Program-made: the position numbers and the translations under genes
Shown here: piece by piece, positions 849 through 15,405 of the stretch
How the letters are laid out: each line of letters starts with the position of its first letter
Numbering within the stretch: position 1 is the stretch's first letter
Notes under the pieces: model-generated
What the model saw: the letters and a program-made list of their open reading frames with translations, nothing else
Told to the model about the DNA's origin: nothing
The model's database searches: none
Assembly: GCA_041601795.1 (NCBI GenBank)
Contig: JBFIHK010000002.1
Span: forward strand, 1 to 47,544
DNA from: Minisyncoccia bacterium
GTDB lineage: Bacteria > Patescibacteriota > Minisyncoccia > Phycocordibacterales > XYD1-FULL-46-19
DNA: 47,544 bases
Direction: 5' to 3'

Positions 849-851
849 GTT

Positions 852-1078
852 GTGCAGGATTCTCGAGCTACACTCGCTATGGTACCCCGCCATGCGTGCA
901 TGGCGGGGTCTTTCTAATTCGTGCAGGATTCTTTCATTACACAAACAGTATACCTTTGCGATTTTCTCTCGGCCAAGCCGCTCGAAAATAACGCAAAGCT
1001 TTTCGAATCCTGACATAACCCAAGCAGTTGGCTTATTCACGGGTCACATATAAATACTTTTCAGTATTTATAATTTTG
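852..1078 (-). repeat. tRNA-Lys-linked trailing element, two stacked modules (proximal 921-1078, distal 852-920)
   Basis: Sense remnants gtgcaggattc at 852-862 and 921-931 equal tRNA gene 1085-1095. Antisense box ttcgaatcctg at 1002-1012 is the reverse complement of 1088-1098. CTGC-loop hairpin at 1015-1036. Perfect 11-bp GC hairpin at 885-908. Confidence 0.7.
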
Positions 1079-1151
1079 TGCCCCGTGCAGGATTCGAACC
1101 TGCGACCGTTCGCTTAAAAGGCGACTGCTCTACCAACTGAGCTAACGGGGC
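1079..1151 (-). tRNA. tRNA-Lys (anticodon UUU)
   Basis: The reverse complement folds as a cloverleaf: acceptor GCCCCGT/ACGGGGC, D-arm TAGCTCAGTTGGTAGAGC, anticodon loop CTTTTAA, T-arm GCAGGTTCGAATCCTGC. No encoded CCA. Confidence 0.9.
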
Positions 1152-1226
1152 TTACAAAAACTGTTTACGGCATTATCTTACCTAAAAAACCTTGTTTTGT
1201 CTACGTTTTTAATTTAGTATAGCGGA

Positions 1227-1700
1227 ATGATTGAGGAACAAAAATACTTAGTTTTAGACAATATTCGTTCTAGTTATAACGTAGGAGCTATTTTTAGGAC
1301 AGCTGATGCTGTGGGGATAAATAAAATATTTTTAACTGGAGTCACTCCTTGTCCGGTTGATAAGTTTAACCGCGTTAGTAGTCGGATTGCTAAATCAGCT
1401 TTGGGGTCAGAACAAACGGTTAGTTGGGAATACAAAAAAAACATTAGTTCTGTTTTAAAAAAATTAGTTGAGTCTAGGGTCCAAATTATAGCTTTAGAAC
1501 AAGCACCTAAATCTGTAAACTATAAAAAAATAAAACTTGCTAAAAATTGGGCCTTAGTTTTAGGCGAAGAAACCAAAGGTTTACCAAGGGCTGTTCTTGG
1601 TAAATGTGATGTGATTGCTGAAATACCAATGAAAGGAAAAAAAGAATCTCTTAACGTATCGGTAGCTACAGGAGTGGCTTTGTTTGAATTTACTAAATAA
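1227..1700 (+). CDS. SpoU/TrmH-family RNA 2'-O-methyltransferase
   Basis: LDNIRSSYNVGAIFRTADAVG and LVLGEETKGL...IPMKGKKESLNVSVATG match SPOUT (SpoU) motifs. Confidence 0.8.
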   Translation: MIEEQKYLVLDNIRSSYNVGAIFRTADAVGINKIFLTGVTPCPVDKFNRVSSRIAKSALGSEQTVSWEYKKNISSVLKKLVESRVQIIALEQAPKSVNYKKIKLAKNWALVLGEETKGLPRAVLGKCDVIAEIPMKGKKESLNVSVATGVALFEFTK

Positions 1701-1706
1701 ACGTTT

Positions 1707-2582
1707 TTACTTTTGACATTTAGGACAAAAGTGAGTGCCTCGACCAGCGTGTTTTATTTTTAAAATTGTAGTGCCACAAGTTTTGCAAGGTTTTTTTTCT
1801 AAGCCATAAACATTTAAATGTTTAACAAAACCTCCAGGGGTGCCAAGGGCGGTTAAATAATTTTTAGCTGAAGTTCCTCTATTTTTAATTGATAGTTTCA
1901 AGACGGTGATAATATTGTTTCTTAGTTTTTCAATTTCTTTTTTGTTTAAAGTGGATACAATTTTGTCTGGTTTTAAACCACTTAAAAAACAAGCTTCATC
2001 AATGTAAATATTACCTAAGCCTGCAATGTGATGTTGGTCAAATAAAGCTTTTTTAATAGACCTTCTAGGAAAGCGCCTAAAAATATTTTCCAGTTTTAGA
2101 GGAGTGAAATCTTTAGTTAAAGGTTCCACGCCATATTTGTTTAAAGTATTTTCTTTTTCAGTGAAACTAACTAGTCTCATCCAACCAAATTTTCTCATGT
2201 CATTAAAATATAAAGTGTCGCCGTTTTTTAAGTCAAAAACAAGACGAGTAAAATTGTTGGGTAAATAGGTGGCCCCATTTTTTTGAGGATGACCACCAAT
2301 AACTAAGGAGCCAGCTTGAGGTTTTAAAATAAGCTGACCTGTCATTTTAAGATGACACAGAAGGTGAAATTCTTTTTCATTTTTATTTAAAGTTAGGTTG
2401 ATTATTTTGGCTCGGCGCGAGACATTTAAAATGGTGGCGTCTTTAGTTTGGTTAATAAAAACTTTAACCTCTAAAGGGGCGACTGTTTTAGGATTTAAAA
2501 CAGTCGTTTTTTTAATAGTTTGTCCAACTAATTTTTTTTGCAAGTCTCGAACAATAGTTTCAACTTCGGGTAATTCAGGCAT
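1707..2582 (-). CDS. mutM: Formamidopyrimidine-DNA glycosylase
   Basis: N-terminal MPELPEVE catalytic motif. C-terminal zinc finger CKTCGT...HFCPKCQ. Confidence 0.92.
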   Translation of the reverse strand: MPELPEVETIVRDLQKKLVGQTIKKTTVLNPKTVAPLEVKVFINQTKDATILNVSRRAKIINLTLNKNEKEFHLLCHLKMTGQLILKPQAGSLVIGGHPQKNGATYLPNNFTRLVFDLKNGDTLYFNDMRKFGWMRLVSFTEKENTLNKYGVEPLTKDFTPLKLENIFRRFPRRSIKKALFDQHHIAGLGNIYIDEACFLSGLKPDKIVSTLNKKEIEKLRNNIITVLKLSIKNRGTSAKNYLTALGTPGGFVKHLNVYGLEKKPCKTCGTTILKIKHAGRGTHFCPKCQK

Positions 2583-2634
2583 ATATTTTATATAACAGAA
2601 AATGACTTTAAAAGCACTTTTTAGTTTTTATGTC

Positions 2635-3927
2635 TTATTCTTTTTTCGTATTGTTGTTTTTTCGTTGGGTCAGAATTTTTTCTAATTCTTCTTCTGCCAC
2701 CTTAGCATCACTCCAAGGCTCTTTGGCACCATTTTGGCGCATAATATAGGGGTCGGTACCCTTACCAGTGATGATAACCACTCCTTTAGAGGTAACTTTT
2801 GTTAAAGCTTCTTTAATGGCTAACCGTCTATCCATTTCGATTGTTTTAGGGGTAGAACTAATACCTTCTGCTATCATGTTTACTATTTGTTTTGGATCTT
2901 CATCATAAGGATCCTCATCGGTTAAAATAATGTGTTGGCAATGTTTGTCGGCCACTTTACCCATAGCAACTCTTTTTTGAGTGTCGCGCCCACCACCAGC
3001 TGATCCTAAGACGCAAACTTTTTTATAGTCTTTATAGAGGGAATATATTTTATCTAAAGAGTCGGCAGTATGAGCATAGTCAACAATTACATCAAAATCT
3101 TGATAAGGGGTTAAATTTTTGTTTTGGGGGTAAATTTTTTCTACGCGTCCAGGAATGCCGTTAAAATTTTCTAAACCTTTTTTAATTGTTGGTAAATCAA
3201 TATCTAAATGCTCAGCTATTTTAATAGCTGATAAGATATTGTACAGATTAAAAATACCAGCTAAATGACTTTGAATTTTTGTATTTTTGTAGGTAAAAAA
3301 TAAACCGTCGATAGTAGAAGTGTAGGGTTCGGCCTCTGTGAGGTGAGTTTGAATAATTTTTTCTAAAGGGGGTAGTTTTAATTTAAGACTTTCTTCGTCG
3401 TCGCCATTGGTAACTAAAATTTTATTTTTTTTAGGAGAATTTTTTAAAGTTTTAACTATTTTTAACTTAGCTTTAGTATATTTTTCATAAGAACCGTGAG
3501 ACTCTATGTGTTCTGGTGAAAGATTGGTGAAGATTAAACCATTTAAATAAATAAATTTATGTCGCCACTGCTTAGTGCCTTCTGAGGTCATTTCGATAAT
3601 GGCACAAGTGGAGCCTTTATGAACGGCTTCGTATAAAAACTTTTGCAAGAAAGCCCGTCCAGGCATTGTCATTTTTAATAAATTTGGTTTAGTGTCAGAA
3701 TTAATTTTAAAACGTAATGTCGAAGCAATGGTAGTTTTGTGACCAGCAGCCTCTAAAATAGAATTCAAAATTTCCACTGTACTAGTTTTGCCTTTAGTAC
3801 CAGTAATACCAATAGTTATTATTTTTTTAGTCGGAAAACGGTAATAAATAGCTCCACCTAAAGCAATTAGAAAATGATAAATAGAGACGATAAAATTAGG
3901 GGTTATTTTTTTTATTTTATTTAGCAT
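2635..3927 (-). CDS. murE: Mur ligase, UDP-N-acetylmuramoyl-tripeptide synthetase (MurE-like)
   Basis: P-loop GITGTKGKTST. C-terminal TDEDPYDEDP sits in the position of the MurE DNPR motif. Adjacent to a FemAB gene. Confidence 0.8.
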   Translation of the reverse strand: MLNKIKKITPNFIVSIYHFLIALGGAIYYRFPTKKIITIGITGTKGKTSTVEILNSILEAAGHKTTIASTLRFKINSDTKPNLLKMTMPGRAFLQKFLYEAVHKGSTCAIIEMTSEGTKQWRHKFIYLNGLIFTNLSPEHIESHGSYEKYTKAKLKIVKTLKNSPKKNKILVTNGDDEESLKLKLPPLEKIIQTHLTEAEPYTSTIDGLFFTYKNTKIQSHLAGIFNLYNILSAIKIAEHLDIDLPTIKKGLENFNGIPGRVEKIYPQNKNLTPYQDFDVIVDYAHTADSLDKIYSLYKDYKKVCVLGSAGGGRDTQKRVAMGKVADKHCQHIILTDEDPYDEDPKQIVNMIAEGISSTPKTIEMDRRLAIKEALTKVTSKGVVIITGKGTDPYIMRQNGAKEPWSDAKVAEEELEKILTQRKNNNTKKE

Positions 3928-3928
3928 A

Positions 3929-4957
3929 TTAAATATTTAATTTTTTTTTAATTATATAAAGATAATACCAAAAAGGTGATATAACCAAATCAAAAGTAGG
4001 GCCAAAATCTTTAATTAAGCCTGTAAACTGTTTTTTAAAATGACTCACATTTTGCCACGATAAATCTGTTCCATGGCTAACACCGCCAAAGCTATAATAT
4101 TTGGCTCCCAAGCGAGCACTTTCTAGAAAACCTATCCAATGAGCCAAATAAGTGGAAAATTGTTCTCTATAAGAACTACTAGAAGCTCCGAAAACAAATA
4201 AAGCTGTCCCACCATAAACTACTATTAAATTAATGGCTAATATTTCTTGTTTAAATTCTGATACAACTAAAAAACCATTCTTTTGATTATTGAGACTATT
4301 AAAAATATGTTGATAGTATTTTTTAGGGTGAAGTTTAAAATTTGCTCGATTAGCTGTTTCTTCCATTAAACGATAAAATTCAGGGAAATACTGACTTAAA
4401 TTATTAGAGATAATTTTAGTGGTGGTGCCTCTTTTTGTGGCCGTTCTAATAGAATAGCGAGTGTTTTTATTGAGTGAATTTAATAATTCCGTTTCAGGTT
4501 TTGATATGTCCACCACCCATTCATATCGAGGTTGGCTTAAAACAGAGTAATAACCTTTTTTAGGGGTGGGGTGAGTTTTTCTTTTAATGTTTCTTAAAGC
4601 CTCAGGAGTAAAGAATTGAGGATTAAAACGAATAAAGGCAATATTGTTTTTTTGACTATATTGTTTAAGGTAAAAAACTAAAGCTTCTACACTTTCTTGG
4701 TTTGTATTTTTTGTTAAAACAATAGGGCCATGGGGAATGAAAGCTTGTTTTTTACCTCCAGCTAGAGGGGTTGTTAAAATTTGTAAAAATATTTGAGGTT
4801 TTGTTTGTTTTTGTAAAATGAGCCTCTCTACTTTTACTCCAGGTCTTTCTTTTTGCCATAAGTTATATAAAAAACTTTGAGTTAGGTGGCCACCGATGGC
4901 GTTTATTGTTTCATCGTACATTGACGAATCTAGGGTAGTGAAAGTGAAATCTTTCAT
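3929..4957 (-). CDS. FemAB-family peptidoglycan interpeptide-bridge aminoacyltransferase
   Basis: 342 aa. Length and pattern (NKNTRYSIRTATKRG, FKLHPKKYY, YGGTALFVFGASS, YYSFGGV) are typical of FemX/FemAB proteins. Translationally coupled to murE. Confidence 0.7.
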   Translation of the reverse strand: MKDFTFTTLDSSMYDETINAIGGHLTQSFLYNLWQKERPGVKVERLILQKQTKPQIFLQILTTPLAGGKKQAFIPHGPIVLTKNTNQESVEALVFYLKQYSQKNNIAFIRFNPQFFTPEALRNIKRKTHPTPKKGYYSVLSQPRYEWVVDISKPETELLNSLNKNTRYSIRTATKRGTTTKIISNNLSQYFPEFYRLMEETANRANFKLHPKKYYQHIFNSLNNQKNGFLVVSEFKQEILAINLIVVYGGTALFVFGASSSSYREQFSTYLAHWIGFLESARLGAKYYSFGGVSHGTDLSWQNVSHFKKQFTGLIKDFGPTFDLVISPFWYYLYIIKKKLNI

Positions 4958-4959
4958 AT

Positions 4960-5532
4960 TTATTTTCGACCTAATTTTTTTATAGCTATTTTTATTTTTT
5001 CGTCGACCGTTGTGTCTTCGCCGGTAATTTGTTTGAAAATATTTCTAATATCAGAAATGTTATAACCAAGGGCGATTAAAGCATCGACAGCGTCATTATC
5101 ATTTTTAGAAATTTTACTTTGGTCATGGGGTAGAGTGCCAATTTTGTCTCTTAATTCTAAAATAATTTTTTCGGCACTTTTACGACCAATACCAGAAACT
5201 TTAGTTAAGTAACTAATGTTTTCCGATAAAATGGCTTGGCGCAGGGTCTCTGGGGGAGCGATAGACAAAATAGACAAGGCACTTTTAGGGCCAATACCAG
5301 AAATATTTACCAGAAGTTTAAAAAATATTAATTCTTCATTTTCTATGAAGCCGTACAAATCTAAAACATCTTCCCTGACTATTAGATGTGTTTTTAATTT
5401 AACTTCATCGCCGATGTTTAAACTAGATAAAGCGTGTTCTGTTAAATAAACAATATAACCAAGATCACTTGTTTTTATTAAAGCGGATCTATGTTGGAGG
5501 TCTATAATTTGTCCCTGGAGATAGCCTATCAT
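4960..5532 (-). CDS. ruvA: Holliday junction DNA helicase subunit RuvA
   Basis: MIGYLQG start and two helix-hairpin-helix motifs (ISGIGPKSA, VSGIGRKSAEKI). Confidence 0.9.
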   Translation of the reverse strand: MIGYLQGQIIDLQHRSALIKTSDLGYIVYLTEHALSSLNIGDEVKLKTHLIVREDVLDLYGFIENEELIFFKLLVNISGIGPKSALSILSIAPPETLRQAILSENISYLTKVSGIGRKSAEKIILELRDKIGTLPHDQSKISKNDNDAVDALIALGYNISDIRNIFKQITGEDTTVDEKIKIAIKKLGRK

Positions 5533-5601
5533 TAATATATATAATACATTTTGCTTTCGCCCCTTGCAATTTAAAGAAATATTATGTAATATTCTCCTCG
5601 T

Positions 5602-5874
5602 ATGCCAATAACTAAATCAGCTAAAAAAGCTTTGCGAGGAAGCGCTAAAAAACGCGTTTTTAATAATACTCGTAAGAAAAACATGAAAGACGCCGTTAAG
5701 AGGATAAAAAAGTCTTTAATGGTTAAAGATGTAGCCACAGCTGAAAGTAAGCTCAGTGAAGCTTATAAAGCCATAGACAAGGCTTTTAAGCGGGGGGTAA
5801 TCAAGAAAAATACAGCTGCTCGAAAAAAATCTCGCTTAACTAAAGCTATTATTAAAACTAAAAAAGCTAAGTAA
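5602..5874 (+). CDS. rpsT: 30S ribosomal protein S20
   Basis: Basic 90-aa protein. MPITKSAKKALR...start is typical of S20. Confidence 0.9.
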   Translation: MPITKSAKKALRGSAKKRVFNNTRKKNMKDAVKRIKKSLMVKDVATAESKLSEAYKAIDKAFKRGVIKKNTAARKKSRLTKAIIKTKKAK

Positions 5875-5891
5875 AAATAAAATTAAGCCTC

Positions 5892-5923
5892 AAAAAAAAC
5901 ACTTCAAGAGAAGTGTTTTTTTT
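5892..5923. terminator. Bidirectional intrinsic terminator (rpsT / tRNA-Arg)
   Basis: A-run, stem cacttc / gaagtg with loop aaga, then T8. Confidence 0.7.
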
Positions 5924-5968
5924 GATCTTATAAATTGAAATTGCTAATTTATTTTTTATCAAAAATTT

Positions 5969-6043
5969 TGGTGCTCTCACCAAGAGTCGAACTTGGATTA
6001 CGGGTTCCGCAAACCCGCGTTCTATCCATTGAACTATGAGAGC
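5969..6043 (-). tRNA. tRNA-Arg (anticodon GCG), CCA encoded
   Basis: Reverse complement GCTCTCA-TA-GTTCAATGGATAGAAC-G-CGGGT-TTGCGGA-ACCCG-TAAT-CCAAG-TTCGACT-CTTGG-TGAGAGC-A-CCA. Confidence 0.85.
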
Positions 6044-6076
6044 TTAAATTTCTTAGGCTAGATTATCATAAAAAAA

Positions 6077-6571
6077 TTAAAAGCCCAACTGCTCTGATAT
6101 TTTATCTACTAGTGATTCTTCAAAGTCTACCTCTGGTATAAAGTCAGCTAAAAAGTCGCGTACCTCTTCAGGGTCAATATGGCTTAGGGGTATGACAATA
6201 TGAGGGAAGATCATACGTCCAGTTTCTACCATTAATTTATAAGGTTTTTCATCGTCTTTAATGGCAAAAGAGTCTATTTCTTTTAAAGGGTATAAATTAT
6301 TTTTTATTTTTATACCTTGAGTGGAGATTGAAAAATTTATTAATTCTGGTTTCCTGTTAACTAAAGCCATGGCTGTACCCATGCCGATTAATAAAATGAG
6401 AGCCAGTAAAAAGTTTTTTAAAATAATAGCCAGTAAAATTCCTCCGGCGGTAACAGCTCCTACAACCCAAAACCAGTCTTGAGTTTTGTCTTCTTGTTGG
6501 GTGTATTCAAAATCTTGCCAGTCTATAGTTTGGCCTCGTCTATTTTTCCTAGGATTTAGAGTAGGGTTCAT
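6077..6571 (-). CDS. Hypothetical membrane protein
   Basis: 164-aa ORF with two adjacent hydrophobic helices (WFWVVGAVTAGGILLAIILKNFLLALILLIGMGTAMAL). No recognisable family. Confidence 0.6.
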   Translation of the reverse strand: MNPTLNPRKNRRGQTIDWQDFEYTQQEDKTQDWFWVVGAVTAGGILLAIILKNFLLALILLIGMGTAMALVNRKPELINFSISTQGIKIKNNLYPLKEIDSFAIKDDEKPYKLMVETGRMIFPHIVIPLSHIDPEEVRDFLADFIPEVDFEESLVDKISEQLGF

Positions 6572-6688
6572 TGTTCATATTGTAACAACGCTCATAGATT
6601 ACTTCAATTTTTTTACACACAAATTAAATAAAATTTATTTTGCCTTTAACATCATTTGTATTAACAGTATAATACTGAAGATACTTTT

Positions 6689-8146
6689 ATGTTTAATTTT
6701 GAAAAATGGCTTTTTAGTTTTGTTGTTTTCAGTAGTTTAAGTGCTATCTTGTCGATAGTAGTTTTTTCTCCTGTTTTAAATAAGGATAAGTGGCTGACAT
6801 TAGCAGAAGAAGCTTTAGTGGTGTTTGATTTAAAATCTAAAGCTGTTTTGTCGCAAGTAGAAGATATTAAAGTTTTTGAACCTGTAGATTGGGTCGAAGA
6901 AGGGGCAGTTCAAGTGATAGACGAAGGCAATCCTATGAATTTTAAAGTTTGGCGACCGCAGGTAGAAGTTAAAGATAATTTAATTAAAAATAAAATTGAT
7001 TTTTTAGAAATAAATTTTCCGACCGGTAAAATAATTAAACACAAATCGGGTCAGTCTGAACTAAAAAAAGATATTTTGGCGGCGGGTGATCCTCAAGGTT
7101 GGGGTGGAACACCAGCTGGACTTTATAATGTTTTGAGTAAAAATGAAAAATCTTTTTCCATGTCTAGTAGTGCTTATATGCCTTATGCTGTGCATTTTTA
7201 TGGTAAGTATTTTATTCATGGTGAGCCATATCTTACCACTGGAGATAAAATAGACTCTGTTTATTCTGGGGGCTGCATCAGAGTAGCTGACAAAGATGTT
7301 CAAAATATTTTTACCGCTAGTGATGTAGGGCTACCTGTTTTAGTTATTGATAAAAATTACATTGATCGCTCATTTATAGTCAAAGATTTACCTAAACCAT
7401 TAGTATCGGCTAAATCTTTTGCGGTGGTTGACTTAGAGTCGGGGGTGGTTTTAGCTGACAAAGAAGCCCAAACCAAAAGACCAATTGCTTCTATTACTAA
7501 ATTAATGACAGCGGTAGTGGTAGCTGAAAATATAGATTTACGTAAAGGGGTTTATGCTACCGATAATATGTTGGAAGCTTATGGGTCGACCGAAGGTTTA
7601 ACTAGTGGGGGTTTTTATAAGGCGGTGGAACTTTTTCATTTATTGTTAACAGAAAGTTCCAATGACGCAGCCGAGGTTTTAACTGGTTTTTTAGGACGTG
7701 AGGCTACTATTAATTTAATGACCGAAAAAGCTAAAAGTTTATTTATGGCAGACACTAGCTTTGCCGATCCGTCTGGGTTTGATAGGGACAATATTTCGAC
7801 CGCTAAAGATTTAACTTTTTTAGCTCGTTATATTTACAACAATCGAAAGCCTATTTTAGACATTACAGCTGGGAGAAAAGTCACCACTTTTGGACCCATG
7901 CAATTTGAGGTTAGCAATTTAGTTAATAAAAATAGTTTTAAAAATGGTATTGGTTTTATTGGTGGCAAAACTGGCTTTATTAACGATGCTCGTAACACCG
8001 GACTTTTTATTTTTAAGATGAAAAATAGTTTAGGCGAAGAGTTTCCAGTAGGGGTGACCGTTTTAGGGTCTGAAAGTTTAAAGCAAGATACTGAAAAATT
8101 GCTCGAGTGGGTAGAAGAGGAGTATGAGCTTGAAAGGGTGGGGTAG
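6689..8146 (+). CDS. Fusion protein: L,D-transpeptidase (YkuD) domain + D-alanyl-D-alanine carboxypeptidase (S11/PBP5-like) domain
   Basis: N-terminal anchor. YkuD motif HGEPY...SGGCIRV. Then SxxK (ASITKLM), SxN (ESSNDAA) and KTG (GGKTGF) motifs of class-A low-MW PBPs. Confidence 0.8.
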   Translation: MFNFEKWLFSFVVFSSLSAILSIVVFSPVLNKDKWLTLAEEALVVFDLKSKAVLSQVEDIKVFEPVDWVEEGAVQVIDEGNPMNFKVWRPQVEVKDNLIKNKIDFLEINFPTGKIIKHKSGQSELKKDILAAGDPQGWGGTPAGLYNVLSKNEKSFSMSSSAYMPYAVHFYGKYFIHGEPYLTTGDKIDSVYSGGCIRVADKDVQNIFTASDVGLPVLVIDKNYIDRSFIVKDLPKPLVSAKSFAVVDLESGVVLADKEAQTKRPIASITKLMTAVVVAENIDLRKGVYATDNMLEAYGSTEGLTSGGFYKAVELFHLLLTESSNDAAEVLTGFLGREATINLMTEKAKSLFMADTSFADPSGFDRDNISTAKDLTFLARYIYNNRKPILDITAGRKVTTFGPMQFEVSNLVNKNSFKNGIGFIGGKTGFINDARNTGLFIFKMKNSLGEEFPVGVTVLGSESLKQDTEKLLEWVEEEYELERVG

Positions 8147-8189
8147 GGTTGGTTTACTTGAAAAAAATTTGAGATTTAGGTAATGTTTT

Positions 8190-8405
8190 ACTTGGGTAAG
8201 TAACAACAGTTGTCATGGTGACATCTCTGTTGGTTGCTGGGTAGGCAACCAAATGAGTAGTCGGGTTCGATGCCCGAAACTGGACCGATAAGAGAGAAAT
8301 GGTTGTCTAGAATAAGTGGGAGCCGTTGAGACTTTTTCGCTAGAAAAAGAGGAGGCGTCGTTGGAATACCACTCTCCATTAATCAAATTGAGGTTTGTTA
8401 CCCTT
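8190..8405 (+). ncRNA. Unassigned structured RNA candidate (or long structured 3' UTR of the preceding gene)
   Basis: No credible ORF. Several hairpins: GTCAtggTGAC; GGTTGC-tgggtag-GCAACC; perfect T-arm-like TCGGG-TTCGATG-CCCGA at 8261-8277; CTTTTTC-gcta-GAAAAAG. Immediately followed by an intrinsic terminator. Confidence 0.35.
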
Positions 8406-8407
8406 CT

Positions 8408-8443
8408 GAGCTTGTCACTTTGTGTGGCAAGCTCTTATTTTTT
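8408..8443 (+). terminator. Intrinsic terminator
   Basis: Stem gagcttg...caagctc (8408-8434) followed by ttatttttt. Confidence 0.7.
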
Positions 8444-8451
8444 ATAGGTTT

Positions 8452-8621
8452 AGGGAGGGATTCGGTCACAAATAATTCTCTTGCCGTCGCTCGAGAATTT
8501 CCGCGACCCCGGCTCGGCTATTCACACTGCTGTGTTAATTATGCCTGCGCCTTTCGAATCCCTCACGCGACTGAAGCAGTTCAGTCGCTCCTCTCCTTGT
8601 CAAAATTTTCAATTTTGCCTG
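8452..8621 (-). repeat. tRNA-Ser-linked trailing element
   Basis: Sense remnant 8452-8464 equals tRNA gene 8627-8639 (13 nt). Antisense box 8553-8564 ttcgaatccctc. 9-bp hairpin with CTGC loop at 8567-8588. Confidence 0.7.
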
Positions 8622-8708
8622 CGGAGAGGGAGGGATTCGAACCCTCGGTGCCCTTGCGGACACTCCGGTTTTCAAGACCGGTGCGATCAACCACTCTGCC
8701 ACCTCTCC
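8622..8708 (-). tRNA. tRNA-Ser (anticodon UGA), class II
   Basis: Reverse complement GGAGAGG-TG-GCAGAGTGGTTGATCGC-A-CCGGT-CTTGAAA-ACCGG-(long variable arm)-GAGGGTTCGAATCCCTC-CCTCTCC-G. Confidence 0.9.
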
Positions 8709-8740
8709 AAAAGTAAGCCCTAGGGCTTACTGGTTGTTAT

Positions 8741-9187
8741 TTATTTGTTGTTGTCACCACTATGATCTGTTGTCATAGGGGTGTAGTCTTCAGCTGTTGT
8801 CGGCATTGGATTTGGGTTTGTTGTCGGTACAGTGCTAGCTTCAGATTCTGAAGACATAGTTTCTGGAACGTTTTCTTTGGTGCTGTTTTCTGTTTTTGGA
8901 GCTTTTGATTTAAGACTCTGGGTTTGGGGTGGGGTTTTAGGTTTAGTATCTGCAATAAAAGATCCAGTTGGACGATTTAAGCTTTTGGAAATAAAAAGGA
9001 TATAGATAATTTCTAAAATACCTAAAGTGTTAATCAAGATTAAGGCAATAAACCATAATTTATGATTGTTGCGAGCTGCTTGCCAGAGGGCAATAGCTTT
9101 CCAAACTATAGACCAGACGATAATAAAGATCAGTATCGACCAAAAAATAAAAACGACACTATCAGAAAAATTCAATGTTTGTTCCAT
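8741..9187 (-). CDS. Small membrane protein with Pro/Thr/Ser-rich C-terminal tail
   Basis: Two TM helices (IFWSILIFIIVWSIVW; LWFIALILINTLGILEIIYILF) followed by a low-complexity tail. Confidence 0.6.
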   Translation of the reverse strand: MEQTLNFSDSVVFIFWSILIFIIVWSIVWKAIALWQAARNNHKLWFIALILINTLGILEIIYILFISKSLNRPTGSFIADTKPKTPPQTQSLKSKAPKTENSTKENVPETMSSESEASTVPTTNPNPMPTTAEDYTPMTTDHSGDNNK

Positions 9188-9260
9188 AATTGTTATAGTA
9201 CAATAATATTATTAAAAATCAACCACGACTTAAAAGGTCTATATAGTATATAATAAGAAA

Positions 9261-9656
9261 ATGAAAATTGCAGGCAAAGTTTTGGGTATAGATTTTGGAA
9301 CTAAAAAAATAGGCCTAGCTTTGTCGAATGAGCTTAGAAGTGTGGCTTTTCCTTATGATGTAATACCAGTAAGCAAAGAACTTGTGGAAAAGGTGGTCGA
9401 CATCTGTCGCCGAGAAGAAGTTGAACTAATAGTGGTGGGTGAGTCTAAAAATAATAATGGACTATATAATGAAGTCCATGAACTAGCGGTTAAGTTTATA
9501 GTTGAGTTAAAAAAAGTTTTAGATATTGAAGTTGTTTTTCAGCCAGAAATGTTTTCGACTCAAGAGGCTACAAGAACCGCTCCAAAAGACAAAGACACTG
9601 ATGCTAGAGCGGCAGCTATTATTTTACAAAGTTATTTAGAGAATTATAATTTATAG
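9261..9656 (+). CDS. ruvX: Holliday junction resolvase-like / pre-16S rRNA nuclease YqgF (RuvX)
   Basis: VLGIDFGTKKIGLALSN N-terminal RNase H-fold motif. 131 aa. Confidence 0.85.
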   Translation: MKIAGKVLGIDFGTKKIGLALSNELRSVAFPYDVIPVSKELVEKVVDICRREEVELIVVGESKNNNGLYNEVHELAVKFIVELKKVLDIEVVFQPEMFSTQEATRTAPKDKDTDARAAAIILQSYLENYNL

Positions 9657-9658
9657 TC

Positions 9659-10258
9659 ATGAACTGGCCAAAAAAATTATCTCGTGACTACCTGCACTTA
9701 TGGTTGAAAAATCAAGCTACTAGAAAAGAAGCTTCTTGGGTTTTAGGGGTAATTTCGTTTACTGAAAGCTCTTTTTTTTTAATTCCACCCGACTTTTTCT
9801 TAATTAGTATTTTGTTGGCCGATAATAAACGTTGGTGGCATTATACTTTAATCACCATTGTTGGCTCCGTACTCGGAGGTATTTTTGGCTATTTAATTGG
9901 ATTGCTTTTTTTTGATACAGTGGGAGTTTGGGTTATTGAGACTTATAATCTGACCACTGAAGTTCAATTGGTAGGACAAAAATTTAATGACAATGCTATG
10001 TGGGCTATTTTTGTGTCTGCTTTTACGCCTATTCCATATAAGGTGTTCACCATTTCAGCTGGGTTTTTTAAAGTAAATTTATTTATTTTTGTTTTAATGT
10101 CTTCTTTAGGGCGAGGTTTAAGATTTTTAATCATTGGTTATATTATGCGTTTATATGGTCCGATGGCAGGGAAGTTGATGTATAAATATTTTAATGGCAT
10201 ATCTTTGTTTTTAGCTTTAGTTATTTTAACCTTAGTTTTTTATTCATATATTTTTTAA
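9659..10258 (+). CDS. YqaA/DedA-type (VTT/SNARE-associated domain) membrane protein
   Basis: TESSFFLIPPDFFLISI motif and four or more TM segments. Confidence 0.65.
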   Translation: MNWPKKLSRDYLHLWLKNQATRKEASWVLGVISFTESSFFLIPPDFFLISILLADNKRWWHYTLITIVGSVLGGIFGYLIGLLFFDTVGVWVIETYNLTTEVQLVGQKFNDNAMWAIFVSAFTPIPYKVFTISAGFFKVNLFIFVLMSSLGRGLRFLIIGYIMRLYGPMAGKLMYKYFNGISLFLALVILTLVFYSYIF

Positions 10259-10309
10259 CTTGCTCTAGAGAAAAAATAATAGTAATCTAAAAATTGTAAA
10301 TTAAAGTTT

Positions 10310-10381
10310 GCCCCGGTAGTTCAATGGATAGAACTGCGGACTTCTAAGCCGTTAATGGGGGTTCGATTCCCTCCCGGGGCA
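10310..10381 (+). tRNA. tRNA-Arg (anticodon UCU)
   Basis: GCCCCGG-TA-GTTCAATGGATAGAAC-T-GCGGA-CTTCTAA-GCCGT-TAAT-GGGGG-TTCGATT-CCCTC-CCGGGGC-A. One A.G mismatch closes the anticodon stem. Confidence 0.85.
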
Positions 10382-10543
10382 CAAAGAAAAAAGACGCTAT
10401 CAAGCGTTTTTTTTATTTGTGTTTCGGAGAAACTAAACTGCTTTAGTTTCGTGAGGTAATCGAAAAGGTTCTTCCTTACCGTCTCGCCGAATAGAGCGAG
10501 ACGGTGGAAAACCTGTACTGTTCCTGTAAGGAAAGATTCCCTC
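10382..10543 (+). repeat. tRNA-Arg(UCU)-linked trailing element
   Basis: 9-bp hairpin with CTGC loop at 10429-10450. Antisense box gaggtaatcgaa at 10453-10464 (11/12 to the complement of the tRNA T-arm). Nested hairpin at 10479-10504. Sense remnant gattccctc at 10535-10543. Confidence 0.7.
10386..10414 (+). terminator. Intrinsic terminator directly after tRNA-Arg(UCU)
   Basis: aaaaaagacgct-atca-agcgtttttttt. Confidence 0.55.
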
Positions 10544-10678
10544 TTGGTATTCTAAAACAAAACGTAAGTTTTGGCTGATTATATTTTAGTAGCCCCGGGA
10601 AGGAATCGAATTAGTAAGAAAATTTTATTTAAAACGTTATACAGTATAGTAAATAATTATTACTTAACTATCTTGTAC

Positions 10679-11245
10679 ATGTTAACCAAAATCATTGTTA
10701 TTTTAATTGTTGGTGTAATTGGTGTAGGAGGTTATTTGGTCATTTCTAGTGAGGGTGAAGTTTATGATACCGATTTATCAAACAGTACATCAACTGCAAC
10801 TACAACAACATCTAATATTAGTGAATCAAAAGAAGACAACTTTATTGAGGAAGATTTGTCTATCAAGTGGAAACAAATAGATGCTCCTAATTTTACTTTA
10901 TTTATTCCGACTGATTGGAAATTTAATCAGCTACAAGGTATAGATTCATATTTAGGGGAGTTGGTGGGGCCTGAAGCTAAATTAACTTTTGACTTTGGTT
11001 TATATTCTGATTCACTGGTGGCAGACGACGATCCTAATTATGTGATTACATATGAAAATATAGATGGTTACAAAGCTAAAATAATTAAACCTAAAACAAT
11101 TGGTCTGGGTACAGTTGGTGTTTATTTCGATAATGTTGGTGGAGGTGGCTTTCAAACTACTAAATTACAGATATCTGGCCAAGATTTATCTAAGAAAAAT
11201 CAAGAAATAGCTCTACAAATATTTAGATCTATAGAGTTTAAATAA
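10679..11245 (+). CDS. Hypothetical N-terminally anchored secreted protein
   Basis: The track ORF 10571-11245 starts at TTG inside the tRNA-linked region. The first ATG (10679) gives MLTKIIVILIVGVIGVGGYLV signal anchor, then a Thr/Ser linker. Confidence 0.6.
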   Translation: MLTKIIVILIVGVIGVGGYLVISSEGEVYDTDLSNSTSTATTTTSNISESKEDNFIEEDLSIKWKQIDAPNFTLFIPTDWKFNQLQGIDSYLGELVGPEAKLTFDFGLYSDSLVADDDPNYVITYENIDGYKAKIIKPKTIGLGTVGVYFDNVGGGGFQTTKLQISGQDLSKKNQEIALQIFRSIEFK

Positions 11246-11369
11246 TTAATTGTAAAGAAAGCTTCAGCTTAATATTTTTTAACAGATATTTAATAACAAA
11301 ATCTTTTCTAGTCCCTTAGTGTGTTGCTACAAAATCAACAGCCCCGAAGCTTTTACTGAAACATAAAAA

Positions 11370-11645
11370 CTGAGGGACTCTCGAGCTACACTCACTGGTA
11401 CTTTTCGATTAAATATTCTTAATCAGATATTTAATAACGAAAAGTCTTTCGAGATACCCGTACTTTTTTTGGGACTCGGTCACAACTCTTCTGTTTCGAT
11501 AAATCTACACAACGAAGGTCGCGACCCCGTCTCAGCGACAAGTACTCACTTGGTTCGTCTTGTATACCGCTTCCGACCTTCGAGTCCCTCAGCGCCTACA
11601 AAACAAAAATATTCTAAAGCAATACTTTAGAATCTAATGTTTTTG
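11370..11645 (-). repeat. tRNA-Val-linked trailing elements, stacked modules (proximal 11471-11645, distal 11370-11470; older decayed copy likely 11246-11369)
   Basis: 17-nt antisense box at 11579-11595 is the exact reverse complement of tRNA gene 11649-11665. Sense remnants gggactcg at 11471-11478 and ctgagggactc at 11370-11380. Confidence 0.75.
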
Positions 11646-11719
11646 TGCGCGCTGAGGGACTCGAACCCCCGGCCTACCCGGTGTAAACGGGTTGCTCTAG
11701 CCAACTGAGCTAAGCGCGC
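11646..11719 (-). tRNA. tRNA-Val (anticodon UAC)
   Basis: Reverse complement GCGCGCT-TA-GCTCAGTTGGCTAGAGC-A-ACCCG-TTTACAC-CGGGT-AGGCC-GGGGG-TTCGAGT-CCCTC-AGCGCGC-A. Confidence 0.9.
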
Positions 11720-11758
11720 AATATTGCTACAATACCTTATTTGTATTACTTTATCAAG

Positions 11759-12490
11759 ATGGGTTTTGAACCAAAAATTATATTTGAAGATGAAAATGTT
11801 CTAGTTTTAGACAAGCCAGCGGGCTTGTCTGTTCATGGTGACGGTTTTAAAAAAGAAATTACTTTAGCTGACTGGTTGGTAGGCAGGTGGCCTAGTATTG
11901 TAAATGTAGGGGAATCAACTATTAAAAACGGTCAAGAGATTTTGCGGCCAGGAATAGTTCATCGTTTAGATAGAGATACTAGCGGAGTGATGGTGGTGGC
12001 TAAAAATGAAACAACTTTTAAATATTTAAAAGAGCAATTTAAAAATAGACAAGTTCAAAAAACTTATAGAGCTTTGGTTAAAGGAGTTTTTTCGAAGCCA
12101 GAAGTAGAAAAAATAGTTTATCTACCTATTGGCCGAAGCGATAAAGATCCTAGGAAAAGGGTCGCCAGTCTTAAAGCTGCTGGTAAGTTAAGGTCAGCCG
12201 AAACTAGGTTTAAAGTTTTGGCAACTTCAGGTGAAGGGTATTCTTATATTGAAGCTTATCCGAAGACGGGCCGGACTCATCAAATTAGGGTTCACTTAAA
12301 AGCCATTCAACACCCTATAGTAGGAGATAAGTTGTATGCCGGGGAGTTATTTAATTTATCAGATTTAAATAGACAAGCTCTCCATGCTTATAAATTAACC
12401 CTTTCTTTACCTGGAGGTATAAAAAAAGAGTTCACAGCTCCCATTCCAGCTGATATGGCTTTAGCCCTTGATAAGCTTAAATTATCGTGA
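11759..12490 (+). CDS. rluD: RluA/RluD-family 23S rRNA pseudouridine synthase
   Basis: HRLDRDTSGVMVVAK catalytic motif. Start moved to ATG 11759 (the track start 11741 is TTG, adjacent to tRNA-Val). Confidence 0.85.
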   Translation: MGFEPKIIFEDENVLVLDKPAGLSVHGDGFKKEITLADWLVGRWPSIVNVGESTIKNGQEILRPGIVHRLDRDTSGVMVVAKNETTFKYLKEQFKNRQVQKTYRALVKGVFSKPEVEKIVYLPIGRSDKDPRKRVASLKAAGKLRSAETRFKVLATSGEGYSYIEAYPKTGRTHQIRVHLKAIQHPIVGDKLYAGELFNLSDLNRQALHAYKLTLSLPGGIKKEFTAPIPADMALALDKLKLS

Positions 12491-12506
12491 TAAACTACCT
12501 CTCGTT

Positions 12507-13004
12507 ATGAATACTATGACACTTGCCATCTCACCGGTGGATATCGCTAAAAGAAAAAAAATAGATTTGACCCCAGGTAATACTGTTCGGGTGTTTTTAA
12601 AGATTGAAGAAAAAGGTAAAACTCGATTGCAGATGTTTGAAGGTTTAATCATTTCTCGTAAACACGGCACTGAAGCTGGCGCCACTTTTACTGTCCGTAA
12701 AGTAGCCTCAGGGGTAGGGTTAGAAAAAACTTTTCCTTTATATTCTCCAGTAATTGATAAAATAGAAGTAGTTAAAAAATCTAAAGTTCGTCGATCTAAA
12801 CTTTATTATATTCGTGATAAAGCTGCTAAAGAAATTCGTCGTCGTATGAAGCAAATCATTGGAGGAAAACAAGATGACAACTTAAATGACGAGGAAGAAA
12901 CAGAAGAGGTGGTGGAAGTTTTAGACAGTCCAGATGTTAACCCCGAAGAGGTGGTTGCAACTGAAGCAGAAACACCAGAAACAAAACCAGAAGAAAACAA
13001 ATAA
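12507..13004 (+). CDS. rplS: 50S ribosomal protein L19 with acidic C-terminal extension
   Basis: GNTVRVFLKIEEKGKTRLQMFEGLIISRKHGTEAGATFTVRK...FPLYSPVIDKIEVV is canonical L19. The ATG 12507 start is preferred over the overlapping track start 12468. Confidence 0.9.
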   Translation: MNTMTLAISPVDIAKRKKIDLTPGNTVRVFLKIEEKGKTRLQMFEGLIISRKHGTEAGATFTVRKVASGVGLEKTFPLYSPVIDKIEVVKKSKVRRSKLYYIRDKAAKEIRRRMKQIIGGKQDDNLNDEEETEEVVEVLDSPDVNPEEVVATEAETPETKPEENK

Positions 13005-13014
13005 ATTTAAAAAA

Positions 13015-13042
13015 ACAAACCCTGAATCAGGGTTTGTTTTTT
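13015..13042 (+). terminator. Intrinsic terminator after rplS
   Basis: acaaaccctg-aat-cagggtttgt followed by ttttt. Confidence 0.8.
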
Positions 13043-13077
13043 AAATGACTTTTCTTTACAATTTTAAATATAAAATT

Positions 13078-13161
13078 GCGCGAGTGCTGAAACTGGTAGA
13101 CAGGCACGCTTGAGGGGCGTGTGCTCGTAAGAGCGTGGAGGTTCAAGTCCTCTCTCGCGCA
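13078..13161 (+). tRNA. tRNA-Leu (anticodon GAG), class II
   Basis: GCGCGAG-TG-CTGAAACTGGTAGACAG-G-CACGC-TTGAGGG-GCGTG-(variable arm GCTCgtaaGAGC)-GGAGG-TTCAAGT-CCTCT-CTCGCGC-A. Confidence 0.9.
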
Positions 13162-13304
13162 CAATTGAACAAAGTTTAAAATTGTACGCGAGAGGCGCAT
13201 CTGTTTTTTATAAAATAAAAAACAGGAGCAGGACTTGAAAAGACCCCGCCCTTCTAGAAGGGCGGGGTTGATGTGAGTTGACCCCAAGCCCCCTCGTTAC
13301 GCAC
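13162..13304 (+). repeat. tRNA-Leu-linked trailing element
   Basis: Antisense pieces cgcgagag(g) at 13187-13195 and aggacttgaa at 13230-13239, separated by an AT hairpin. GC hairpin at 13244-13267. TTGACCCC end. Decayed sense remnant aagccccctcgttacgcac at 13286-13304. Confidence 0.65.
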
Positions 13305-13379
13305 CCTTTACTTTTATTTTTAATATGATATAATAAAAATAGTTAGATTCATAAAATACTACCAGAGGAGAATACAGTC

Positions 13380-13586
13380 ATGGCTCGACAGTTTTTCCAA
13401 GTATTTTTTTATGATGAATTAGGACGTTGTTTGTGCCAATGTCCTAAAGTGTGGGGTCTTAATTTAGACCATGCCATTAGGCGTGTTCGAGACAAAAGAC
13501 CAGACCTTGAGGAAACTTATGTTTACGGCAAGAGATTACCCAAAAAATCTCGCACCCAAATGATGGGTGGCAGAGAGATTCATTGA
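13380..13586 (+). CDS. Small hypothetical protein (68 aa, Cys-containing)
   Basis: Strong RBS ggaggag 7 nt upstream of the ATG. A strong terminator follows. No recognisable family. Confidence 0.55.
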   Translation: MARQFFQVFFYDELGRCLCQCPKVWGLNLDHAIRRVRDKRPDLEETYVYGKRLPKKSRTQMMGGREIH

Positions 13587-13600
13587 TAAGTGGATCTCGC

Positions 13601-13634
13601 ACGGGCCCGACTTTTAGTCGGTGCCCGTTTTTTC
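13601..13634 (+). terminator. Intrinsic terminator
   Basis: acgggcccgac-tttta-gtcgg(t)gcccgt followed by tttttt. Confidence 0.8.
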
Positions 13635-13665
13635 TTTTTGTTAAAGATTTTGCTAAAATACTCTG

Positions 13666-14223
13666 ATGGCATTATTTACAGGTAAAGGCGACGGGGGTAC
13701 AACTAAAACTTTCGGCTGTAATCAAAGAGTATCTAAAAGCTCTAACGTGGCTGAAGCACTAGGCACTTTAGATGAGGTGAATTCTTTTTTAGGTGTTTGT
13801 AAGGAAAAAGCTCGAGCGAGTTTTTCTGTACCACCTTACGATATGCCTTTGTCACAATTATTACATCAAACTCAAGGCAATTTGTTTATTGTACAAGCTG
13901 AACTAGCTGGAGCTGAAAAAACAATCACTAAAGTCAAAGTGGTTGAAACTGAAAATATAATCAATGAAGTTGAAAAAATGATGCCACCCATTACTACTTT
14001 TTTTATTTCTGGTGGCACAGAATTAGCGGCTCATTTAGATTTTGCTCGAACGCTGGCCAGAAGAGCTGAGCGTCAGGTGGTGGGAGTTAAAGATGAGGGA
14101 GTACAAAAAATTGGGGCTGACACCCTGGCTTATTTAAACCGTCTATCTAGTTTATTGTACGCCCTGGCTAGACTTACTAACCATTTATCTGGTATAAAGG
14201 AGGAGTCGCCTAGATATAAGTAG
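13666..14223 (+). CDS. PduO-type ATP:cob(I)alamin adenosyltransferase family protein
   Basis: N-terminal TGKGDGGTT motif plus helical-bundle-length protein (185 aa). Confidence 0.8.
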   Translation: MALFTGKGDGGTTKTFGCNQRVSKSSNVAEALGTLDEVNSFLGVCKEKARASFSVPPYDMPLSQLLHQTQGNLFIVQAELAGAEKTITKVKVVETENIINEVEKMMPPITTFFISGGTELAAHLDFARTLARRAERQVVGVKDEGVQKIGADTLAYLNRLSSLLYALARLTNHLSGIKEESPRYK

Positions 14224-14235
14224 GCGATAATAGAT

Positions 14236-14308
14236 GGTGCCTATGGTGTAACGGTTAACACTGAGGTTTGTGGAACCTTCGATTCGGGTTCGATTCCCGA
14301 TAGGCACC
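14236..14308 (+). tRNA. tRNA-His (anticodon GUG) with encoded G-1
   Basis: G(-1)-GTGCCTA...GAGGT-TTGTGGA-ACCTT...CGGGTTCGATTCCCG-TAGGCAC-C. G-1 pairs with C73. Confidence 0.9.
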
Positions 14309-14519
14309 CAAAAATAATAAGTTTAAACTGAAAGTTTGAACGATTGTATTTTTGGTGTTGATCTATCCGGAATCGAAAGACGGAGGCGGTACACAAGACG
14401 AGGAGAAAAACGACGAGTGCTTGTCGCCGAGTCCGGGGAGGAAGCACTTAGTGAACGAAGACCGGAGGGATGAGTGAACTTAGTGACTTGACCCCGATTC
14501 CCGATAGGCACCCAAAAAT
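14309..14519 (+). repeat. tRNA-His-linked trailing element bounded by a perfect 24-nt direct repeat of the tRNA 3' end
   Basis: gattcccgataggcacccaaaaat at 14292-14315 and again at 14496-14519. Antisense box ccggaatcgaa at 14367-14377 (10/11). Confidence 0.8.
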
Positions 14520-14727
14520 TAAAGATAGGCATTTTTACTTATCCACAAGTTGTTGGTTTTAAAAAATATGATATTTGTTAGGCTAATAAGTGAGGTAGGA
14601 TAGTTTGAAAGATTATGCTGTAAGGTTATAATCACTCGTTTTTTAAACGAATCGATAGAACTATTTTACCTCATTAAAGAAACCGGCTTTGAAGCGGGTT
14701 TTTTTAATGTTTGGTATAATAAATATT

Positions 14728-15405
14728 ATGATGAAAAATATTTTTATTACAGGTATAGATAAAGGAATAGGGTTGGCGCTAGCTGAGAAGTTTTTAGACC
14801 AAGGTCATTTTGTTTTTGGGACCGTTTTAACTAAAAAACCTAATCTCCCTCTAGAGAATTTACAAATTTTTACTTTAGATTTGTCCTCGACCGAAAGTGT
14901 TGGAAATTGTAGTCGGGAAATTTTAGCTGCTAGTAAAAAGATTGATATTTTTATTAATAATGCTGGTGTTTTAATAGATAAAGAAGAAGAGGGGGTAGTA
15001 ATCGAAAAACTTCGTCAGACTCTAGAAGTAAATTTAATTGGTACGATAGATATTACAGAGAAATTATTATCGGCCATTAATACCGACGGCCATATAATAA
15101 ATATTTCTTCATCGGCCGGGTCTCTTACTTTAACGGGTTCGGGCACTAGTCATTATCCGGGCCACTACCCAGCTTATAAAATATCTAAAACTGCGCTCAA
15201 TATGTATACTCGGACTTTGGCTGAGAGATTAAAAGATTGGGGTATTATAGTGTCAGCAGTTAATCCAGGTTGGGTTAAAACCGATATGGGTACAGAAAGG
15301 GCAAACTTAGAACCACAAGAAGTAGCCACTAATATATTTAATTTTGCTTTATCTAAACCTGAAACGGGCCACTTCTGGTTTAAGGCAGAAAAAATGCCTT
15401 GGTAA
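14728..15405 (+). CDS. Short-chain dehydrogenase/reductase (SDR)
   Basis: ITGIDKGIGLA cofactor motif, NNAG, and catalytic YKISK. ATG 14728 preferred over the TTG 14689 track start. Confidence 0.85.
   Translation: MMKNIFITGIDKGIGLALAEKFLDQGHFVFGTVLTKKPNLPLENLQIFTLDLSSTESVGNCSREILAASKKIDIFINNAGVLIDKEEEGVVIEKLRQTLEVNLIGTIDITEKLLSAINTDGHIINISSSAGSLTLTGSGTSHYPGHYPAYKISKTALNMYTRTLAERLKDWGIIVSAVNPGWVKTDMGTERANLEPQEVATNIFNFALSKPETGHFWFKAEKMPW

Follow-up and report, generated by a model that had tools for sequence, protein, structure and literature searches.

The tRNA genes of the window and the units behind them

The window, that is, the whole 47,544-nt stretch of DNA analysed here, belongs to a housekeeping region of a Patescibacteria chromosome, and its G+C content is 36%. 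ARAGORN and Rfam placed seven tRNA genes within its first 14.3 kb. When 450 nt behind every tRNA gene was read, structured units were found on the 3′ side of six of the seven, namely those for Lys, Ser, Arg(UCU), Val, Leu, and His; the gene for Arg(GCG) had no unit. A Pfam scan of 40 ORFs of the 47.5-kb window revealed no integrase, transposase, reverse transcriptase, nuclease, or HUH protein. An exact-protein lookup for strain variants returned one identical contig with zero variation. Elsewhere in the window, an isoleucyl-tRNA synthetase (31093–34542, + strand) carries a histidine-phosphatase (His_Phos_1) domain inserted at residues 504–669, a dihydrofolate reductase is fused to a HIT-family domain (25725–26684, − strand), and an ORF of 1159 aa (16259–19738, − strand) has zero Pfam match.

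The units are non-coding and approximately 130–220 bases long (Table 1). Read in the tRNA sense, each begins with a trailer hairpin. A stretch complementary to the acceptor 3′ strand, extending through N73-C74, comes next and is followed, in some units after an insert, by one complementary to the T loop and the T-stem 3′ strand; a core and a terminal copy of the tRNA 3′ end complete the unit. The terminal copy covers tRNA positions ~54–74, with a start that varies between ~54 and 57, and the core of ~45–120 nt contains one or two hairpins and occurs in several subtypes. The point at which the complement is divided, exactly between its acceptor and T-stem parts, is occupied by a variable insert: a 9-bp hairpin with a CTGC loop in the Ser, Arg, and Lys units, the tetranucleotide GATC in the His unit, an A+T-rich hairpin in the Leu unit, and nothing in the Val unit. 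Read on the opposite strand, the C-type units have G+C-rich hairpins (GACCCCGCC...GGCGGGGT; 884–909, + strand, and 13226–13251, − strand) that score as intrinsic terminators, and the one at 884–909 lies just beyond the convergent ORF 132–848.

Table 1. Units behind the tRNA genes of the window and their parts
Feature	Position	Strand	Description
tRNA-Ser(UGA)	8621–8708	−	Host/target gene
Ser trailer	8597–8620	−	Unit start, directly after the tRNA-Ser 3′ end; small hairpin CAAAATT GAAA AATTTTG
Ser acceptor complement	8590–8596	−	GGAGAGG, complement of the acceptor 3′ strand; 1 nt (A) ahead of the hairpin
Ser CTGC hairpin	8567–8588	−	GCGACTGAA CTGC TTCAGTCGC; starting point of this analysis
Ser spacer	8565–8566	−	GT
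Ser box	8553–8564	−	GAGGGATTCGAA; complement of tRNA-Ser 54–65 (T loop and T-stem 3′ strand), perfect 12/12
Ser core	8465–8552	−	Subtype B; three-way junction closed by box and terminal copy; helix P3 GGTCGCG.../...GTGAC
Ser terminal copy	8452–8464	−	CGAATCCCTCCCT; positions 56–68
Arg(UCU) unit	10383–10543	+	Subtype A
Arg trailer	10383–10418	+	Terminator-like
Arg acceptor complement	10419–10427	+	GTGTTTCGG
Arg CTGC hairpin	10429–10450	+	Followed by GT
Arg box	10453–10464	+	GAGGTAATCGAA
Arg core	10465–10533	+	
Arg terminal copy	10535–10543	+	GATTCCCTC
Second complement of tRNA-Arg 3′ end	10588–10610	+	GTAGCCCCGGGAAGGAATCGAA; hairpin-less, remnant of an older unit
Lys units	852–1077	−	Two in tandem, subtypes A then C
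Lys A trailer	1048–1077	−	
Lys A acceptor complement	1038–1047	−	
Lys A CTGC hairpin	1015–1036	−	One G.G mismatch; followed by GT
Lys A box	1002–1012	−	CAGGATTCGAA
Lys A core	933–1001	−	
Lys A terminal copy	921–931	−	
Lys C unit	864–921	−	
Lys C terminal copy	852–862	−	Second copy
Val units	11368–11644	−	Two in tandem, subtypes B then C
Val B complement	11579–11599	−	Uninterrupted 21 nt, without hairpin
Val B core	11479–11578	−	
Val B terminal copy	11471–11478	−	
Val C terminal copy	~11368–11381	−	Second copy
Leu(GAG) unit	13163–13305	+	Subtype C
Leu acceptor complement	13184–13195	+	
Leu insert	13196–13229	+	A+T-rich hairpin
Leu T complement	13230–13239	+	
Leu core	13240–13284	+	
Leu terminal copy	13285–13305	+	Decayed
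His unit	14310–14519	+	Subtype B
His complement	14354–14377	+	4-nt GATC insert replaces the hairpin
His core	14378–14494	+	
His terminal copy	14495–14519	+	25 nt exact; tRNA 3′ end and 6 nt of trailer

Covariation of the CTGC hairpin

The initial annotation had described the CTGC hairpin, a following GT, and an antisense T-arm box at three tRNAs, and all three sequences and their coordinates were found exactly as claimed. The motifs lie 33–47 nt 3′ of tRNA-Ser(UGA), tRNA-Arg(UCU), and tRNA-Lys(UUU) on the tRNA's own strand. A pattern of loop, GT, and box gave two exact matches in the window against 0.15 expected by chance, and all three AACTGCTT octamers of the window are the loops of these hairpins. 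None of the CTGC hairpins was called in a terminator scan; they are followed by GT and the box and have no T run. The separate trailer hairpin of the Arg unit was called by the same scan.

Further copies were collected from metagenomes with a pattern that fixed the loop, two closing A-T pairs, part of the box or flank, and the loop of a 3′ hairpin, leaving the seven outer pairs of the stem free. Over 34 distinct stems from other genomes and metagenomes, these free pairs comprised 224 Watson-Crick, 10 G.U, 1 A.C, and 3 other combinations (n = 238). The compensatory change first seen in three stems thus holds on independent data, with 234 of the 238 positions paired, compared with 159 of 238 when the arms were shuffled. 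The result was the same in an expanded alignment of 40 hairpins, in which 99.2% of the cells pair, double changes occur in seven of seven variable pairs, and 76 cells are compensatory; the score was equalled by none of 500 shuffles, and sliding the partner by one to three columns reduced pairing to 23–51%. Therefore, we concluded that the CTGC hairpin is a selected single-strand structure and not a product of chance. Since G.U exceeds A.C by 10:1 in the stems, the fold was assigned to the tRNA-sense strand.

The loop and the GT spacer had been taken as invariant; they are conserved within one unit lineage only. In the metagenome set, the base after the hairpin is invariably G, and the next base is mostly T, with C or A in some copies, giving GC and GA spacers. 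The CTGC loop is not universal: at this point, related units may have a CTTC hairpin, some other hairpin, a 4-nt bulge, or no insert at all. The hairpin is also dispensable, as many units lack it. Selection on structure, the central claim made for this motif, was borne out by the covariation; the hairpin and box are not the whole feature, however, since the hairpin is an optional insert in a larger element. With its fixed loop and free stem, it is probably a handle for a protein.

A bipartite complement specific to the adjacent tRNA

The antisense box proved to be just the 3′ half of a complement of ~21 nt, the other half being the 9–10 nt directly 5′ of the hairpin. Its specificity was examined in 29 non-redundant A-type copies with a called tRNA, scoring positions not fixed by the search pattern. 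In the T-stem part (five T-stem positions and position 60), 166 of 174 positions were Watson-Crick to the adjacent tRNA. The acceptor part (nine positions ahead of the hairpin against tRNA positions 66–74) gave 214 of 255, usually with pairing through C74, and a one-nucleotide spacer (A) separated it from the hairpin in 27 of the 29 copies. As both parts match the adjacent tRNA, they are read as one bipartite complement that ends at C74.

The complement:tRNA pairs of the A-type copies showed no G.U excess. An RNA guide that pairs with the tRNA, as argued from such an excess, was accordingly rejected: under symmetric scoring, there was none either in these pairs or in the long palindrome described below. 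We also rejected a tRNA-derived pseudogene in which the complement is a copy of the tRNA 5′ strands, because the units carry the true complement where the tRNA has a G.U pair or a non-palindromic T loop (Val, Glu).

Structure and strand of the core

Covariation is seen in three hairpins of the A-type units, namely the CTGC hairpin, a long P2, and a short P3 whose loop is UGUAA. These are joined by the conserved single-stranded linkers UCGAAAAG and GGURUACUG. B-type units, which include the Ser, Val, and His units of the window, form a three-way junction closed through box:copy pairing, with a P2 that has a GAG/AGG internal loop and a P3 of the form GGUCGCG.../...UGUGACC; two G.U pairs of this P3 are conserved in 12 and 7 of 13 sequences, respectively. 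In 33 of 35 units, the box-to-copy region has its better fold on the sense strand, with a mean difference of 8.3 kcal/mol and better z-scores. Because the G.U pairs of the core are conserved, we lean towards RNA over single-stranded DNA as the active form.

In a second, longer pairing, one arm comprises the tRNA 3′ end and trailer and the other the trailer and complement, giving a palindrome with arms of 35–45 nt and ~85% pairing. It shows no asymmetry between G.U and A.C (92 and 108, respectively) and could be an inverted duplication at the DNA level rather than selected pairing.

Several known structures were considered for the units and discarded. The conserved TATACT of the A-type linkers is not convincing as a −10 box, because TGTACT stands in its place in many copies and no −35 is conserved. 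Hammerhead and other small ribozyme cores were rejected on misfitting junction sequences and the lack of an Rfam hit, and retron, tmRNA, T-box, and C/D guide on misfitting anatomy.

Distribution of the units

GTDB species representatives were scanned with ribosomal protein L19, which gave 80 Patescibacteria loci (1.1 Mb; all sampled loci are designated by L numbers below). A unit was flagged by a complement of positions 54–65 at most 150 nt from the tRNA end and/or a copy 80–400 nt downstream. Approximately 50 of ~300 tRNAs were flagged in these loci, namely those for Ser, Arg(UCU), Arg(GCG), Val, Leu, and His. The AACTGCTT hairpin recurred with other stems in five flagged units; at the acceptor/T-stem boundary, which was the site in every case, the remaining ones had another type of hairpin, a 4-nt bulge, or no insert. 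One metagenome scan yielded 65 A-type copies in 58 contigs. They lie behind at least 12 tRNA species: Ser (three isoacceptors), Val, Lys (two), Arg (three), Glu (two), Tyr, Gly, Gln, and Leu (two).

In IMG/VR, three core and left-end patterns gave only chance matches in coding DNA and revealed neither units nor a gene-carrying version. Against Rfam 15, only tRNAs reached the gathering score, and at E ≤ 5 on positions 600–14800 there were merely weak chance matches overlapping tRNAs. A literature search of weak coverage found no comparable element. To the left of an A-type unit in L231 and L238, a 41-nt stretch with tRNA-His-like acceptor ends (GGTGTCT...TAGGCACC) and almost no body sits where a full tRNA is expected; ARAGORN calls nothing there.

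Insertion behaviour

Filled and empty sites were found at two tRNA genes. The tRNA-His genes of L178 and L191 are identical at 71 of 73 positions, and the trailer that stands after the terminal copy of the 213-nt unit in L178 directly follows the tRNA in L191. L162 and L192 show the same contrast at tRNA-Ser. Identical units also occur with either a tRNA or unrelated DNA on their left (L267 copies at 894 and 5378; L229 compared with L244), and the identity between copies begins at the first base past the tRNA end. Two or three identical units are arrayed in L149, L165, L220, L253, L258, and L268, and units of different subtypes are arrayed behind the Lys and Val tRNAs of the window and in L268 (A, A, and a decayed B). 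The presence of units at orthologous tRNAs is sporadic. Given the filled and empty sites, the tandem arrays, and the same unit with different left flanks, the units behave, as judged from these sequence comparisons, as insertions at one exact point, immediately 3′ of C74. An apparently empty site could also result from precise loss of a unit through the 20-nt direct repeats.

In many A-type copies, the same 14-nt insert (AAGCGTACTCGCGG or a variant) lies between the T-loop and T-stem parts of the terminal copy. It was seen behind Glu, Gly, Gln, Arg, and Lys tRNAs, and because it is conserved at different tRNAs, we regard the terminal copy as part of the element and not as a displaced tRNA end.

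C is present at position 74 in ~93% of 376 tRNA genes (window, L139–L218, and L220–L277), CCA is encoded in only ~16%, and the commonest sequence at positions 74–76 is CAA. The proposal that the insertion splits an encoded CCA is uninformative, because C74 is normally followed by A and only ~16% of the tRNA genes without a unit encode CCA.

Two larger islands were observed beside units. In L229 (470–6634), a defence island with HaeIII restriction-modification, a SIR2-like protein plus HerA helicase, and a truncated large serine recombinase starts exactly after the terminal copy of an A-type unit; in L268, which is related, this position is taken by a second unit. In L267, 249-nt direct repeats (860–1108 and 5344–5592; 99.6% identical), each consisting of a unit and 95 nt, lie on either side of a 4.2-kb island that carries XRE-type regulators and a restriction-modification system.

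Discussion

We propose that the units form a family of non-autonomous insertion elements specific to the 3′ ends of tRNA genes, whose ends are recognised through base pairing, and give this reading an even chance of being correct. On a single strand in the tRNA sense, the complement has two possible partners. Pairing with the terminal copy of the same element would close the core as a multi-way junction; the alternative partner is the 3′ end of the tRNA just upstream. Either pairing would put both element boundaries in the same defined helix, presenting one common substrate to an enzyme. The complement:terminal-copy pairing would define the right end and, after excision, the joined junction, and the complement:tRNA-end pairing the left junction. 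We infer that a putative trans-acting enzyme recognises both the ends and the target by this pairing, with hairpins of conserved loop sequence as its handles (CTGC and, at the opposite end of A-type units, CCTGTAAGG). The hairpin stands between the complement halves, at the point where, in a tRNA, the 5′ strand departs from the coaxial stack of acceptor and T stems. Complement and copy might be re-specified at another tRNA by, for example, recombination between tandem units that differ in subtype.

A more specific form of this proposal is a nucleic-acid-guided insertion system of a new class in Patescibacteria, in which an element of ~150 nt carries a programmable bipartite guide of 21 nt and folds as a structured RNA or ssDNA, a putative trans-acting enzyme inserts it exactly after C74, and the target is regenerated at the element's 3′ end. 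More than 12 tRNA species have units in which the same scaffolds come with different complements, which points to this form; we put it forward tentatively, as a possibility with less than even prospects.

As for the partner enzyme, a phmmer search with an approximate IS608 TnpA query, which is a weak search, gave no hit to an IS200/IS605 TnpA-like ORF among 9734 ORFs in 1.56 Mb of sampled loci, and no autonomous, gene-carrying version of a unit was seen in the data sets, including IMG/VR. An HNH endonuclease was rejected as the partner: it is tRNA-linked in 15 loci, a unit is present in just one of them, and there is none in the window.

These HNH genes are an observation in their own right. 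Small HNH ORFs (PF01844/PF13392) lie 5–15 nt upstream of, and co-oriented with, tRNA-Ser(UGA) or tRNA-His in 15 of the 80 Patescibacteria loci (for example, L192:3243–3725, L173:955–1515, L203:2286–3125, and L165:16523–17068). L192 combines such a gene with a very different tRNA-Ser body and a unit, and its close relative L162 has a plain tRNA-Ser; the arrangement in L192 looks like a homing cassette. HNH-linked tRNA-His genes have non-canonical T loops (GGAGCGTAACC compared with GGTTCGAnnCC; L173:15313–15386, L209:3505–3578, and L183:6314–6386) and may be cleavage-resistant alleles.

Small site-specific mobile elements and element-borne guides are already known, and the units are read as a variant of these. 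IS200/IS605 and PATE elements are small, strand-specific, and without terminal inverted repeats; they have subterminal hairpins and are moved by a Y1 HUH transposase through 'peel and paste'. In IS200/IS605, the left flank is recognised by pairing with a sequence just 5′ of the element hairpin, and insertion occurs directly 3′ of this flank. The units are similar in that a single nucleotide separates the acceptor complement from the hairpin on its 3′ side (27 of 29) and in that this complement pairs with the last 9 nt before the boundary. Their pairing, however, is tRNA-specific and extends over ~21 nt (9 + 12), some fivefold the fixed 4–5 nt of those elements; in addition, the units end in a copy of the target, and their hairpin is optional. 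IS110/IS1111 elements with bridge (seek) RNAs, like other guides, share with the units an element-borne complement of the target that varies with the target from copy to copy. Unlike these, the units have no DEDD/RuvC-like recombinase ORF in the window, their complement forms a closing helix rather than internal-loop guides, and complement and identical copy both cover one target segment. An RNA form, favoured by the conserved G.U pairs, would place the units nearer in principle to element-encoded guide RNAs.

In integron attC sites and CTX-phage attP(+), as in the units, two inverted copies ~100 nt apart fold to imitate a double-stranded target, and arrays form at one site; the units differ in targeting a tRNA end rather than dif or attI and in having a conserved structure between the copies. 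The primer-binding site of LTR retroelements is likewise complementary to the 3′-terminal ~18–21 nt of a specific tRNA, whereas the complement of the units stops at C74 without CCA and is split by an insert, and no LTR or reverse transcriptase accompanies it. Unlike those of MITE and REP-type repeats, the ends of the units (trailer and tRNA copy) are not inverted repeats, and their sequence is tRNA-specific.

The units might instead be resident, immobile non-coding RNAs linked to tRNAs and transcribed by read-through from the tRNA or from a promoter of their own. Complement and copy would then form a helix like the top half of a tRNA, bearing a functional core with a role in tRNA metabolism, such as sensing, the control of processing, or service as a decoy or sponge, and the match to the tRNA would be kept by gene conversion between the direct repeats and by compensatory change. 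Conserved G.U pairs, covariation, and single-stranded linkers are features of functional RNAs, and the sense-strand folding bias, the branch point exactly where the tRNA 5′ strand leaves the acceptor/T stack, and the high density of units in streamlined genomes are consistent with this; several trailers are without a U-run, which makes read-through plausible. We nevertheless consider a resident RNA rather unlikely. It leaves unexplained why at least 12 tRNA species have units matched to their own 3′ ends and why units of different subtypes stand in tandem, and it fits poorly with their sporadic presence at orthologous tRNAs. Moreover, pairing of the complement includes N73-C74 and in this differs from a tRNA acceptor end, strong terminators are common among the trailers, and Rfam contains no such family.

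Islands and prophages that target tRNA genes through tyrosine or serine integrases resemble the units in more than one respect: the target is the 3′ part of a tRNA, a direct repeat stands at both borders, insertions are stacked, and real islands occur at the same point (L229 and L267). The units could thus be scars of integrase-mediated integration, with the direct repeat as the att identity block and the rest as arms of decayed islands or prophages. The tRNA 3′-end repeats and tandem accretion are typical of such islands, and both the truncated recombinase island of L229, which abuts the terminal copy of a unit, and the island of L267, flanked by unit-containing repeats, agree with this origin. 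The units themselves argue against it. They are uniformly small (130–220 nt) without an integrase gene, and their covarying structure recurs across distant genomes; the internal inverted complement of the target is foreign to known att sites, the terminal copy has a conserved insert, no integrase lies in or beside the units of the window, and units are absent from IMG/VR. We judge this origin improbable. Finally, replication template switching at the palindromic terminator and T arm, leaving functionless inverted and direct duplications, would suit the long quasi-palindrome without strand asymmetry and the palindromic TTCGAA, but is already disfavoured because of the covariation and is most improbable, as it cannot yield conserved cores, one hairpin loop with 34 different compensated stems, or the conserved insert of the terminal copy.

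If pairing directs insertion, the elements would represent a compact natural system in which ~21 nt of complementarity picks the site and the recognition module is ~150 nt, and their interest would be on a par with that of bridge RNAs or OMEGA guides. If they are merely RNA genes, they would be an abundant, unannotated family of structured RNAs associated with tRNAs, in a bacterial radiation that is very large and poorly understood. Much of what passes for 'intergenic' DNA downstream of the tRNA genes of these small genomes consists of such units, which should be masked or annotated in genome analyses.
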